IMG/VR virus record: IMGVR_UViG_2617270976_000018
Length of the DNA stretch: 12,354 nt
Origin: a virus
Taxonomy: Duplodnaviria; Heunggongvirae; Uroviricota; Caudoviricetes
Reading direction: 5' to 3' (one strand)
Below the pieces are notes generated by a model. That model was not told the origin of the DNA, did no database searches, and saw nothing but the letters and a program-made list of their open reading frames with translations. Numbering within the stretch: position 1 is the first letter of the stretch; every line of letters starts with the position of its first letter. The position numbers and the translations under genes were made by a program. Below, one piece after another: positions 3,440 through 9,046 of this stretch.

Positions 3440-3629
3440 AAAGTAATCCTTGCTATGGGTGGTTAATCATGCGTTAATGGTGTTCTGGTTTGTTACAAAT
3501 TTATCTGAAGCAGTCATTGTTATAATTTTATTATTTGTACCTCTTGAGATTTCCTTGTTGGTTTTTCTCTCTGATATTTTTTTTCGGACCATTCTGCCCA
3601 AGGGCTAATTTCTTCAAAAGGTAATAATT
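3440..3629 (+). promoter_or_regulatory. cspI promoter and cspA-type 5' leader
   Basis: GCGTTAATGGTGTTCTGGTTTG (3471-3492) is paralogous to the cspB block at 568-590. An AT-rich UP-like region lies upstream, and the leader ends AAAGGTAATAATTATG. Confidence 0.45.
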
Positions 3630-3842
3630 ATGTCTAACAAAATGACTGGTTTAGTGAAATGGTTTAACCCTGAAAAAGGTTTTGGTTTCATCACGCCGAA
3701 AGATGGCAGCAAAGATGTGTTTGTCCATTTCTCAGCAATTCAGAGCAACGATTTCAAAACATTAACTGAGAATCAGGAAGTTGAATTTGGTATTGAGAAC
3801 GGACCTAAAGGTCCTGCCGCTGTTCATGTAGTGGCGCTTTGA
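3630..3842 (+). CDS. cspI: Cold-shock protein CspI (CspA family, 70 aa)
   Basis: [73 protein letters not shown]. It sits directly downstream of rzpQ, as in Qin. Confidence 0.9.
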
Positions 3843-3852
3843 GGTAGACAAT

Positions 3853-4041
3853 ATTACAAACCATATTCACTTTAGATGCCCGTGTTGTCATGGTTCCCAG
3901 TATAGAACATCATCTTTTGATGTTTCTGACATGAATCCTTTCGGGGCAAAATGTATCTTTTGTAAATCAATGATGATTACATTTGATAATATTTCACAAT
4001 ACTTAAATGCCAGCCGTCTGTCGTTGGATTTAAAAAAGTGA
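3853..4041 (+). CDS. Ogr/Delta-like four-cysteine zinc-ribbon ORF with no canonical start codon; possible AUU start, frameshift product or decayed gene
   Basis: Frame 1 is open from 3832 to the TGA at 4039-4041 and encodes ...HFRCPCCHGSQYRTSSFDVSDMNPFGAKCIFCKSMMITFDNISQYLNASRLSLDLKK. There is no ATG/GTG/TTG in frame. GAGGT (3841-3845) lies 7 nt before ATT 3853. An intrinsic terminator follows the stop. Confidence 0.3.
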   Translation: MTNHIHFRCPCCHGSQYRTSSFDVSDMNPFGAKCIFCKSMMITFDNISQYLNASRLSLDLKK

Positions 4042-4046
4042 AAATG

Positions 4047-4070
4047 AAGGCTCCTTCGGGAGCTTTTTTG
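4047..4070 (+). terminator. Intrinsic terminator
   Basis: AGGCTCC-TTCG-GGAGC hairpin followed by TTTTTT, 6 nt after the stop of the zinc-ribbon frame and about 205 nt after the cspI stop. Confidence 0.6.
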
Positions 4071-4188
4071 CTTGGTGTCTATTCGATGGATACTCACATA
4101 CTACGGTAACATCATGAAAAAAATCATAGTTTTTTTTAACTCTGAACCAGCAGTGGTAGTGCCAGCGATGACTGGAGTTAACACCATC

Positions 4189-4344
4189 ATGCGTGAATAT
4201 CCAAATGGCGAAAAAACACACCTTACTGTAATGGCCGCAGGGTTTCCATCTCTGACCGGAGATCATAAAGTCATTTATGTAGCCGCGGATCGACATGTTA
4301 CTTCAGAAGAAATTCTGGAAGCAGCAATAAGGCTCTTGAGTTGA
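4189..4344 (+). CDS. ynfN: Small hypothetical protein, YnfN-like (51 aa from ATG 4189; longer forms possible from ATG 4114 or TTG 4072)
   Basis: The open frame ends ...MREYPNGEKTHLTVMAAGFPSLTGDHKVIYVAADRHVTSEEILEAAIRLLS. The 51-aa length from ATG 4189 matches my recollection of YnfN length; I cannot recall its sequence. No strong SD precedes any candidate start. Confidence 0.45.
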   Translation: MREYPNGEKTHLTVMAAGFPSLTGDHKVIYVAADRHVTSEEILEAAIRLLS

Positions 4345-4515
4345 TTTGATGCTATTGCATTGATAATTCAGGAAAATTCTCTTTGTCTGTTTGTGTAAAA
4401 TTTAGACTATCGTATGTTGATTATTGCGATGTTTCATCTTATCTTTTACACGTTTGCACCATATAATCGACTTACTGTGTAACTGGAAAGTCATAACAGA
4501 CTAAAAGAGGAAATG

Positions 4516-5930: not shown

Positions 5931-9046
<3,116 letters not shown>

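Follow-up and report, generated by a model that had tools for sequence, protein, structure and literature searches.

The window analysed here is the whole 12,354-nucleotide stretch of a Caudoviricetes record (IMG/VR IMGVR_UViG_2617270976_000018), and the features described below are all on its plus strand. The upstream cistron at the locus is cspI, which encodes 70 amino acids at 3630–3842 in the ORF listing (RefSeq cspI, WP_000066495.1) and ends in CTT-TGA. Its 5′ UTR and coding sequence together match the cspA thermoregulator (3484–3869; Rfam RF01766, 112.8 bits against a gathering threshold of 78, model positions 1–428 of 428), and this match continues beyond the cspI stop to cover the opening codons of the next gene. 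That gene, ynfQ, lies at 3853–4041 and comprises 62 codons counted from an ATT at 3853; it is assigned to the YmcF family, predicted Cys4 zinc ribbons, on the basis of RefSeq, Pfam, UniProt and dN/dS. Read directly from the sequence, its frame opens at 3832, just after a TAG (3829–3831), and is closed by a TGA at 4039–4041, giving 70 codons. The initial annotation had described a frame that is open from 3832 and devoid of ATG, GTG and TTG, and this holds as far as ATG 3931. No canonical start is found between 3832 and 3930, and the ORF listing, which uses canonical starts, gives only a 36-residue ORF (3931–4041) in the ynfQ frame. A Shine–Dalgarno-like GAGGT (3841–3845) overlaps the cspI stop codon and is separated from ATT 3853 by 7 nt (3846–3852).

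Database comparisons identified the frame as a catalogued gene. The RefSeq annotation of K-12 has a CDS at matching coordinates (WP_071524604.1), named ynfQ/ymcF and described as ‘cold shock small protein’, with its start at the codon corresponding to ATT 3853. An exact-sequence look-up of the product returned UniProt YNFQ_ECOLI (Protein YnfQ), which is identical except at residue 1, where the ATT of the window translates as Ile and the databases give Met. The protein matches the Pfam family YmcF-like (PF23641) with 109.9 bits (cut-off 27; E 6.9e-32) over its whole length, residues 1–62 aligning with profile positions 1–62 of 62. The profile, which matches 40 of 40 aligned family members, begins at the codon of ATT 3853. 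Coordinates, ATT start and the place directly 3′ of cspI all agree with the catalogued locus, and the position between cspI and ynfR/ynfN in the Qin prophage is the one given for E. coli in the K-12 RefSeq feature table. We therefore consider it probable, at roughly 0.85, that 3853–4041 is the catalogued ynfQ, translated from AUU 3853. Its paralog ymcF is a core gene, ynfQ itself residing in the Qin prophage. Since public annotation already contains the gene under this name and with the ATT start, none of these is new, and the main effect of the present analysis is to correct the record. Between the window and K-12 MG1655, 1 nt in 800 differs; ynfN is intact in the window and frameshifted in MG1655. 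The name ‘ynfQ’ has also been used by VanOrsdel 2018 for another ORF, of 37 amino acids, located between ydfJ and ydfK.

The earlier proposal that the frame is a real gene is supported by these RefSeq, Pfam and UniProt entries and by its pattern of substitution. Across the Enterobacteriaceae the frame is kept with a dN/dS of ~0.06 over 775 sequence pairs, dS being saturated. As a control, the +1 frame of the same DNA was stop-free in only 20 pairs, with a median ratio of 1.9, and the +2 frame was stop-free in none. The exact YnfQ protein occurs on at least 1000 contigs. These observations bear on the suggestion that the gene is freshly inactivated, having recently lost an ATG and left an open frame by chance. 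The lack of a canonical start would fit such a pseudogene, as would the ATG found at the homologous codon in orthologs from Klebsiella, Raoultella, Enterobacter and Leclercia. However, ATT/ATC is no private mutation of this locus; it is the majority state in at least 10 genera and is present in both E. coli paralogs, ymcF being likewise annotated from ATT. The low dN/dS with saturated dS, the four Cys and 16 other columns that are invariant or nearly so in the family alignment (A2), the frame intact both in the ynfQ lineage of 95% identity and in free lambdoid phages, and the presence of the paralogous pair cspG–ymcF in 5414 of 5426 complete E. coli genomes also argue against recent decay, and we give the pseudogene reading a nearly negligible probability. 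The pairing with a cold-shock gene, thought unusual at first, turns out to be normal: csp next to ymcF/ynfQ is the ancestral arrangement, as exemplified by cspG–ymcF.

To define the start codon we compared 80 enterobacterial loci, 48 of which carry an intact csp gene ending 9–10 nt upstream of the homologous codon (10 nt in 41 loci, 9 nt in seven). Over the whole set this codon is ATT in 54 loci, ATC in four and ATG in 22, and the codons alternate across genera. In the csp-linked loci it is ATT or ATC in 48/48, and in every one of these 48 an AAGG/GAGG Shine–Dalgarno sequence overlaps the csp stop codon (TAAGG or TGAGG). The picture differs in the 31 loci without an upstream csp, where ATG occupies the homologous codon in 21 and the next codon in three (Atlantibacter, with ATT-ATG), and seven retain ATT (six Pseudescherichia and one further locus, L080). 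Klebsiella and Raoultella retain a 3′ remnant of csp and have ATG in place of ATT, and the csp-less Enterobacter and Leclercia loci have a new AGGAG together with ATG. The Fisher p of 2e-14 for csp-linked loci having non-AUG starts overstates the association, to which only some three to four independent lineages contribute. Stop codons just upstream leave no room for a canonical start in two groups, so that ATT must be the start there: seven Kosakonia-type loci have the csp stop in frame with ymcF only 3 codons before ATT, and the Pseudescherichia loci have a TGA in frame 5 codons before it. In addition, the start codon is biased towards ATT relative to its synonyms ATC/ATA (47:4), more so than three internal Ile codons taken together (125:62; Fisher p = 2e-4, uncorrected for phylogeny).

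The initial annotation had offered initiation at AUU 3853, with GAGGT 7 nt upstream, as one of two routes of expression, and this route is the one favoured by the RefSeq CDS start, the Pfam profile start and the 80-locus comparison. The comparative evidence shows that ribosomes in all probability initiate at AUU 3853, guided by GAGGU, which shares nucleotides with the cspI UGA. Could a shorter product be made instead from an internal start? ATG 3931 is the sole canonical start in the frame and ATT 3865 is a second in-frame AUU. A product begun at 3931 would lack the first zinc knuckle as well as HFRCPCCHGSQYRTS, the block conserved best, and residue 27 is Met in the lineage of the window only, being R, K, Q, S or N elsewhere. 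ATT 3865 sits 19 nt from the Shine–Dalgarno sequence, and the codon there behaves as any internal Ile/Leu position, with ATT, ATC, ATA and CTC in mixed use. Either internal start is thus highly improbable. A literature search returned no mapping of the YnfQ or YmcF N-terminus, no demonstration of either protein, no test of its function and no data on IF3 sensitivity of the start, and neither gene is mentioned in the TetRP paper and its supplements, the Onc112/retapamulin preprint, the Ribo-RET preprint or the all-64-codons paper. The case for AUU initiation, and for the coupling discussed below, is therefore one of comparison and annotation.

The second route suggested earlier was a programmed +1 frameshift at the cspI stop, similar to that of prfB (RF2), which would give a CspI–zinc-ribbon fusion as a main or minor product. 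The last sense codon of cspI is CTT (3837–3839), followed by TGA (3840–3842) and then G, so that the CUU-UGA-G junction is present as described, as is the lack of an upstream Shine–Dalgarno stimulator. ynfQ occupies the +1 frame with respect to cspI, and this frame is open through the junction from 3832, just as in prfB a CUU-UGA core is followed by an open +1 frame. The +1 relation is found in 41/48 csp-linked loci, and Citrobacter sedlakii L010 has an in-frame csp::ymcF ORF of 130 amino acids at the DNA level, which indicates that a fusion protein may be tolerated. However, the junction itself did not survive comparison across orthologs. CUU-UGA is found in 8/48 csp-linked loci and the CUU-U slip site in 14/48, the rest ending in CUC, CGC, CGU or GUA; the E. 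coli paralog ymcF follows CUC-UAA. In the Kosakonia-type loci (7/48) ymcF is in frame 0 and the csp stop is in frame. The rarity of CUU-UGA and the coincidence of frames in these seven loci mean that a +1 shift cannot express the family. The 31 loci without an upstream csp are also difficult to reconcile with a fusion, being standalone genes mostly with ATG at or beside the homologous codon, and the Pfam profile begins at the ATT codon, not upstream of it. The site further departs from that of prfB in having UGA-G for UGA-C and GUAGUGGCG in place of an AGGGGG-like stimulator 3 nt upstream of CUU, and neither the site nor the frame relation is conserved in orthologs and the paralog. Frameshifting is accordingly very unlikely as the means by which ynfQ is expressed.

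Having placed the start at AUU 3853, we considered the nature of the protein. The conserved block of the YmcF-like family, HFRCPCCHGSQYRTSxFDV...NPxGAKCIFCKS, holds both zinc knuckles (CPxC ... CxxC). The first, C9-P-C-C12, is encoded at 3877–3888; C9, P10 and C12 are invariant in the 40 sequences of alignment A2, and the family keeps FRCPCCHGSQYRTS. The second, C34-I-F-C37 (CxxC), is encoded at 3952–3963, with C37 invariant and C34 at least 90% conserved in the same alignment. An AlphaFold2 model of YnfQ (mean pLDDT 73.7) has short strands between the knuckles and a helix at 44–57, and the 62-residue protein is predicted to form a zinc ribbon with a C-terminal helix. The metal site has also been modelled elsewhere (PMC13348028). 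Given the conserved cassette csp – ymcF – ymcE/ynfN – gnsA/gnsB, our best guess for its role is that YnfQ may bind a nucleic acid or a partner protein in a zinc-dependent manner during adaptation to cold. A profile search of 1.84 billion representatives returned 41 small proteins and one spurious long match, and no informative fusions. YnfQ also matches the NCBIfam family ECs_2282_CxxC weakly (E 0.003, below the cut-off). Kinship with the neighbouring CPxC protein YnfU was considered and rejected, BLASTP giving no alignment and YnfU belonging to a separate NCBIfam family.

The initial annotation had placed the frame among the Ogr/Delta-type zinc fingers, according to which YnfQ would be a divergent phage late activator carried by the Qin prophage. 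The likeness of the motif F-x-C-P-x-C...R-T-S...C...(I/F)-T-(F/Y)-(D/E) is real, and both YnfQ and Ogr are Cys4 zinc ribbons, predicted as such for YnfQ, of ~60–70 amino acids. Weak similarity is also detected by pairwise and profile methods: BLASTP aligns YnfQ with P2 Ogr at 27% identity over 48 amino acids (pairwise E 3e-6), and hhalign of the two family alignments (A2 for YmcF, A3 for Ogr) gives E 5e-4 over 50 columns, although with a probability of only 30.8%. On the other hand, a search with the Pfam Ogr_Delta HMM (PF04606) gave no match at E ≤10 for YnfQ or any of 40 homologs, against E 1.1e-21 for the P2 Ogr control; it should be noted that the HMMER speed filters discard most matches above E ~0.1, which bears on this null result up to E 10. 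The knuckles are spaced C-x2-C-x21-C-x2-C in YnfQ and C-x2-C-x22-C-x4-C in Ogr (C4, C7, C30 and C35 in A3), and the Ogr-invariant residues A11, Y18, K24, Q29, N32 and E43 are not common to YnfQ. Foldseek searches of the PDB and BFVD returned only generic zinc ribbons with E >0.4; the top 50 matches included no Ogr/Delta name, many viral matches being unnamed, and the YnfQ fold shows no structural preference for Ogr-like models. The genetic setting differs too. Ogr/Delta proteins belong to P2/P4-like phages, whereas the YnfQ family is found in cold-shock csp operons, the core chromosome and a lambdoid accessory region, and ymcF, its main copy, belongs to the core chromosome, where it follows cspG, rather than to a phage late region. 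Given the Pfam null in 40 sequences, the knuckle spacing, the low hhalign probability and the generic fold matches, the proposed membership was not substantiated, and we judge a late-activator identity to be quite improbable.

Downstream of ynfQ, a hairpin resembling an intrinsic terminator and followed by a U-run is located at 4047–4070 (AAGGCUCC-UUCG-GGAGCUUU; −14.5 kcal/mol in a 40-nt context, z = −2.5). A consensus terminator scanner listed this hairpin on the minus strand only, not on the plus strand. The plus-strand call is based on the RNA fold and on a comparable hairpin and T-run after the paralog ymcF. The terminator reported previously was therefore recovered with its hairpin and T-run, although it begins 5 nt from the ynfQ stop, not 6 nt. 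RefSeq places ynfR, a small ORF of 21 amino acids (4044–4109), 2 nt after the ynfQ stop, such that it runs through the terminator hairpin. The SPA-tagged YnfR protein has been detected and is induced by cold shock (PMC6001520). RNA-seq has shown co-induction of cspI, ynfQ and ynfN (6.5-, 5.9- and 5.8-fold in one column, 38, 42 and 51 in another; PMC11228462), and butanol treatment of E. coli lowers the expression of cspG, cspH, cspI, ymcF and ynfQ alike (PMC11728337). Co-regulation of ynfQ with cspI is thus reported, at the RNA level only. From this co-regulation and the layout of the genes we infer that ynfQ is probably transcribed together with cspI, from the cold-shock promoter and with the long thermosensor leader, and most cspI–ynfQ transcripts would end at the hairpin at 4047–4070. 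Ribosomes translating ynfR across the terminator stem may, in addition, adjust the level of read-through into ynfN–gnsB.

The absence of AUG where an intact csp ends 9–10 nt upstream raises the question of how a weak start codon is maintained. We infer that the AUU may be kept by selection because the csp cistron that ends 10 nt before ynfQ is translated very heavily. Ribosomes ending translation of cspI would be handed to the Shine–Dalgarno sequence and AUU by coupling or re-initiation, and the poor start codon would keep YnfQ output small and proportional to Csp. Once csp is lost, the gene would need a canonical AUG, and it appears to have gained one. That initiation of ynfQ is coupled to termination of cspI is suggested by the arrangement of the two genes, and we advance it tentatively, at somewhat less than even odds. 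The fuller proposal is marginally more doubtful. It holds that the AUU/AUC start of ymcF/ynfQ is tied mechanistically to its place 9–10 nt behind csp, that initiation depends on ribosomes terminating at the SD-forming csp stop, that this would give a low YmcF:Csp ratio in cold shock, and that each loss of csp was followed by an AUG (Klebsiella/Raoultella, Enterobacter/Leclercia and Atlantibacter) or a leader mini-ORF (Pseudescherichia). On the present comparative data, a weak codon that simply lowers the dose and a re-initiation mechanism are indistinguishable. One structural form of coupling was considered and rejected, namely an RNA hairpin that masks the Shine–Dalgarno sequence and AUU until cspI is translated. 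Such a hairpin has −11 kcal/mol in the window, −0.5 in ymcF and is absent in many orthologs, and since it is not conserved in ymcF, structural coupling is unsupported.

For comparison, AUU starts have been confirmed by experiment in two E. coli genes, infC and pcnB (PMC3592434; bioRxiv 10.1101/063800). Output from AUU is ~1–15% of that from AUG (PMC3592434; bioRxiv 10.1101/063800). In both genes, as in ynfQ, the AUU is accompanied by a Shine–Dalgarno sequence at normal spacing. The start of infC (IF3) resembles that of ynfQ further in following soon after the stop of the upstream cistron (thrS, UAA-GGU-AUU), the stop region supplying the Shine–Dalgarno sequence, although the gap from stop to AUU is 3 nt at infC and 10 nt at ynfQ. 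In a reporter assay of the thrS–infC junction, re-initiation and de novo initiation contributed about equally (PMC3592434). The start codon of pcnB is reported to alternate with canonical codons in other taxa, as it does in the ymcF/ynfQ family. YnfQ is no translation factor, and hence has no obvious autoregulatory logic, and its start is supported by comparison and annotation. The confirmed pair would be joined by two paralogs, ynfQ and ymcF. If the proposed coupling is true, they would constitute a third AUU-start family in E. coli and a model, provided by nature and repeated in evolution, of how initiation at a non-AUG codon can be coupled to termination. Beyond the correction of the record, the remaining value of YnfQ/YmcF, a conserved and predicted zinc ribbon of a cold-shock operon, is modest but real. 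The link between csp coupling and the non-AUG start is a small side result that is possibly new: the start is non-AUG whenever an intact csp lies just upstream and AUG in most csp-less loci, which provides a testable hypothesis for the maintenance of weak starts.

The cspI gene (3630–3842, + strand) ends in CTT-TGA, with G as the next base. In the +1 frame relative to cspI, a TAG at 3829–3831 is followed by a zinc-ribbon frame that is open from 3832 up to the TGA at 4039–4041. This frame, which contains ynfQ (3853–4041), lacks ATG, GTG or TTG until ATG 3931, and for this reason the mechanical ORF list gives only a 36-aa ORF at 3931–4041. An SD-like GAGGT (3841–3845, + strand) overlaps the cspI stop and is spaced 7 nt from ATT 3853. 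The frame is followed by a + strand hairpin, AAGGCUCC-UUCG-GGAGCUUU, with a U-run (4047–4070; fold −14.5 kcal/mol), which begins 5 nt past the ynfQ stop rather than 6 nt as first described; at this hairpin a consensus terminator scanner lists the minus strand only. The paralogue ymcF also has a comparable hairpin and T-run on its 3' side. The factual elements of the initial annotation's ‘start-less’ ORF, namely the frame, CUU-UGA-G, GAGGT-N7-ATT and the terminator hairpin, were all confirmed.

The gene itself is already known and its AUU 3853 start is already in public annotation. Megablast placed window 3600–4400 in 2147 of 5426 complete Escherichia coli genomes, in which the annotated order is cspI, ynfQ (alias ymcF, ‘cold shock small protein YmcF’), ynfR and ynfN. 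The K-12 MG1655 CDS WP_071524604.1 equals 3853–4041, and the annotated ynfQ start is therefore ATT 3853; the 62-residue product, with its first codon written as Met, is UniProt YNFQ_ECOLI, and the exact sequence occurs on at least 1000 contigs. Pfam PF23641 (YmcF-like) matches YnfQ (E 6.9e-32) over residues 1–62 against profile positions 1–62/62, so that the first position of the family model also falls on the ATT codon. The window corresponds to the region of the Qin prophage in which cspB, ynfU, essD, rrrQ and rzpQ precede the cspI-ynfQ module and ynfN, gnsB and later genes follow it; the module is also carried by free lambdoid phages at 96–100% identity. When only the ynfQ segment was searched, at higher sensitivity, 5414 of the 5426 genomes matched because of the core paralogue ymcF, whose annotation likewise starts at ATT and whose cassette, cspG-ymcF-ymcE-gnsA, parallels cspI-ynfQ-ynfR-ynfN-gnsB in the window. 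VanOrsdel 2018 used the name ‘ynfQ’ for another ORF.

We compared the start region across 80 ymcF/ynfQ loci (one genome per species), anchoring on the first Cys codon and taking the codon eight positions upstream as the homologue of 3853. An ATG, which the initial annotation had proposed to look for in orthologues, is present in 22 loci (Klebsiella, Raoultella, Enterobacter, Leclercia, Silvania and one Citrobacter sedlakii locus); the other 58 carry ATT (54 loci: Escherichia, in both paralogues, and Citrobacter, Kosakonia, Scandinavium, Yokenella, Trabulsiella, Intestinirhabdus and Pseudescherichia) or ATC (four loci: Salmonella and Siccibacter). AAGG or GAGG lies 7–8 nt before this codon in all compared loci. 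In seven Kosakonia-type loci the csp stop falls in the ymcF frame just three codons before ATT, and the Pseudescherichia loci have an in-frame TGA five codons before it; with no canonical start available, ATT must be the initiator in both groups. Among unique sequences the codon is ATT in 47, ATC in four and ATA in none, compared with 125:62 for the three internal Ile codons pooled (Fisher p = 2e-4, uncorrected for phylogeny). Initiation at AUU 3853, one of the routes first suggested, thus appears to be right, as judged from its agreement with the RefSeq start, the start of the Pfam profile and the alternation of ATT, ATC and ATG. Our literature search found no paper mapping the ynfQ or ymcF start experimentally. 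Three records (L005, L057 and L082), whose titles name a Veillonella parvula MAG, a Mucilaginibacter MAG and Chryseobacterium sp., carry enterobacterial csp-ymcF loci with protein identities to the query that reach 98%; these are probably contaminating contigs in the respective assemblies.

The coding frame has a median dN/dS of 0.06 over 775 pairs; the +1 frame of the same DNA gives only 20 stop-free pairs, with a median ratio of 1.9, and the +2 frame gives none. These comparisons indicate that the ynfQ frame is under strong purifying selection, which rules out a freshly inactivated gene, another of the initial readings. The internal ATG 3931 was excluded as the real start: Met occurs there only in this lineage, and initiation at this codon would leave out both the first knuckle and the block with the strongest conservation.

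It had also been proposed that +1 frameshifting at the cspI stop yields a CspI-zinc-ribbon fusion. The window does have the CUU-UGA-G junction and the +1 relation; however, neither the shift site nor the frame relation is conserved. CUU is the last sense codon in 14 of the 48 loci with an intact csp, only eight of which have CUU-UGA, and in the remaining loci the last codon is CUC (12), CGC (12), CGU (5) or GUA (5). The E. coli ymcF junction is CUC-UAA, a 9-nt gap in seven loci puts ymcF in frame 0, the window CUU has no SD-like stimulator upstream, and 31 loci have no upstream csp at all. Frameshifting is therefore not the expression route of the family, though it may occur at a low level in the particular allele of the window.

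When csp linkage was scored by tblastn with CspI over the 80 loci, an ATT or ATC start was found in 48/48 loci in which an intact csp ends 9–10 nt upstream. Among the 31 csp-less loci, ATG occupies the homologous codon in 21 and ATT-ATG is found in three (Atlantibacter, where TGAGG-N10-ATT is kept and ATG added as the following codon). In Klebsiella and Raoultella some 20 nt of the csp 3' end are still present and ATT has become ATG, and in Enterobacter, Leclercia and Silvania the leader is unrelated and carries AGGAG and ATG. Six Pseudescherichia MAG loci without upstream csp (L019, L021, L022, L025, L027 and L029) keep ATT; here an 8-codon mini-ORF (ATGAAAAAAGGATACTATTATTACTAA; about 1165–1210 of the loci) overlaps the start, contains its SD and ends 4 nt past ATT, and may stand in for the upstream cistron in coupling. 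The sole csp-adjacent ATG is in C. sedlakii NBRC 105722 (L010, 997–1389), where a deletion fuses csp, whose 3' end appears shortened, to ymcF in a single 130-aa ORF (...GPRGPHFKVTVMTPHIHFRCPCC...); either a natural gene fusion or an error of assembly could account for this. From this pattern, to which few independent lineages contribute, we infer that the weak start may be kept because it follows a csp cistron that is translated at a very high level, perhaps to limit dose, through a dependence on terminating ribosomes, or for both reasons. The layout resembles the thrS-infC junction (UAA-GGU-AUU), where re-initiation supplied, by the estimate of a reporter study, about half of the output (PMC3592434). 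That study puts AUU at about one-sixth to one-eighth of AUG, and another reports 1–2% of AUG (bioRxiv 10.1101/063800). The association of csp linkage with a non-AUG start is a small, testable residue beyond the known gene. A window-specific hairpin that would mask the SD and AUU was rejected as a coupling device, as ymcF does not conserve it.

The product had been likened to Ogr/Delta-type late activators. The motif resemblance holds as far as both being Cys4 zinc ribbons, and YnfQ shares 27% identity over 48 residues with P2 Ogr (pairwise E 3e-6; as a control, the Ogr sequence used matched Pfam Ogr_Delta at 1e-21). Nevertheless, none of 40 YmcF-family members matches Ogr_Delta, even with E allowed up to 10, the family has CxxC as its second knuckle where 25 Ogr proteins have an invariant C-x4-C, and profile–profile comparison gave a probability of 31%. 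Foldseek of the YnfQ model against PDB and viral models returned nothing below E = 0.4; the top matches were ribosomal eL43-type and TFIIE-alpha zinc ribbons and unnamed phage zinc-ribbon proteins, none being named Ogr or Delta, although many viral ones are unnamed. The Ogr/Delta label is not borne out, and nothing supports a transcription-factor role for YnfQ. The 40-member alignment has an invariant or near-invariant block, HFRCPCCHGSQYRTSxFDVxxxNPxGAKCIFCKSxM, and a variable tail usually ending in RK. The AlphaFold2 model (mean pLDDT 73.7, about 81–89 over residues 11–40) places short strands between two knuckles and a helix at 44–57; a rubredoxin-like metal site is likewise the model given for YnfQ in a 2026 review (PMC13348028). 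Profile searching across 1.84 billion representatives recovered just 41 proteins, all small and with no informative fusions among them. The family is narrow and essentially confined to Enterobacterales. A second small CPxC zinc-knuckle protein of the prophage, ynfU (1322–1492, − strand; NCBIfam NF038384, E 1e-22), has no detected sequence similarity to YnfQ.

At the RNA level, ynfQ, cspI and ynfN share an induction pattern (PMC11228462), and ymcF and ynfQ group with cspG, cspH and cspI (PMC11728337); overexpression of gnsA or gnsB raises unsaturated fatty acid content (bioRxiv 10.1101/2024.03.27.586906). Given this co-regulation and the gnsA/gnsB neighbours, the cassette looks like a cold-adaptation module. 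The 21-aa ynfR (MKAPSGAFLLGVYSMDTHILR; 4044–4109, + strand) begins 2 nt past the ynfQ stop and overlaps the hairpin at 4047–4070; its coding sequence opens with the terminator hairpin itself. YnfR has been verified by SPA tag and is cold-shock induced (PMC6001520); ribosomes entering ynfR could block the hairpin and tune read-through into ynfN-gnsB. In a 95%-identity ynfQ lineage the ynfR ORF is truncated (annotated ‘too short’). The ynfN gene (4114–4344, + strand) is intact in the window, with 76 aa from ATG 4114, but carries a frameshift in the K-12 MG1655 annotation; over 3600–4400 the window is one base longer than MG1655. The Rfam cspA thermoregulator model, which covers an entire csp mRNA, matches 3484–3869 (+ strand), running through cspI and beyond it to take in the SD of ynfQ and its first six codons, with the part for the cspA terminator hairpin deleted in the alignment. 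A second match covers cspB (582–974, + strand, 152 bits), and the Rfam IS009 RNA family matches 8798–9012 (+ strand, 128 bits).
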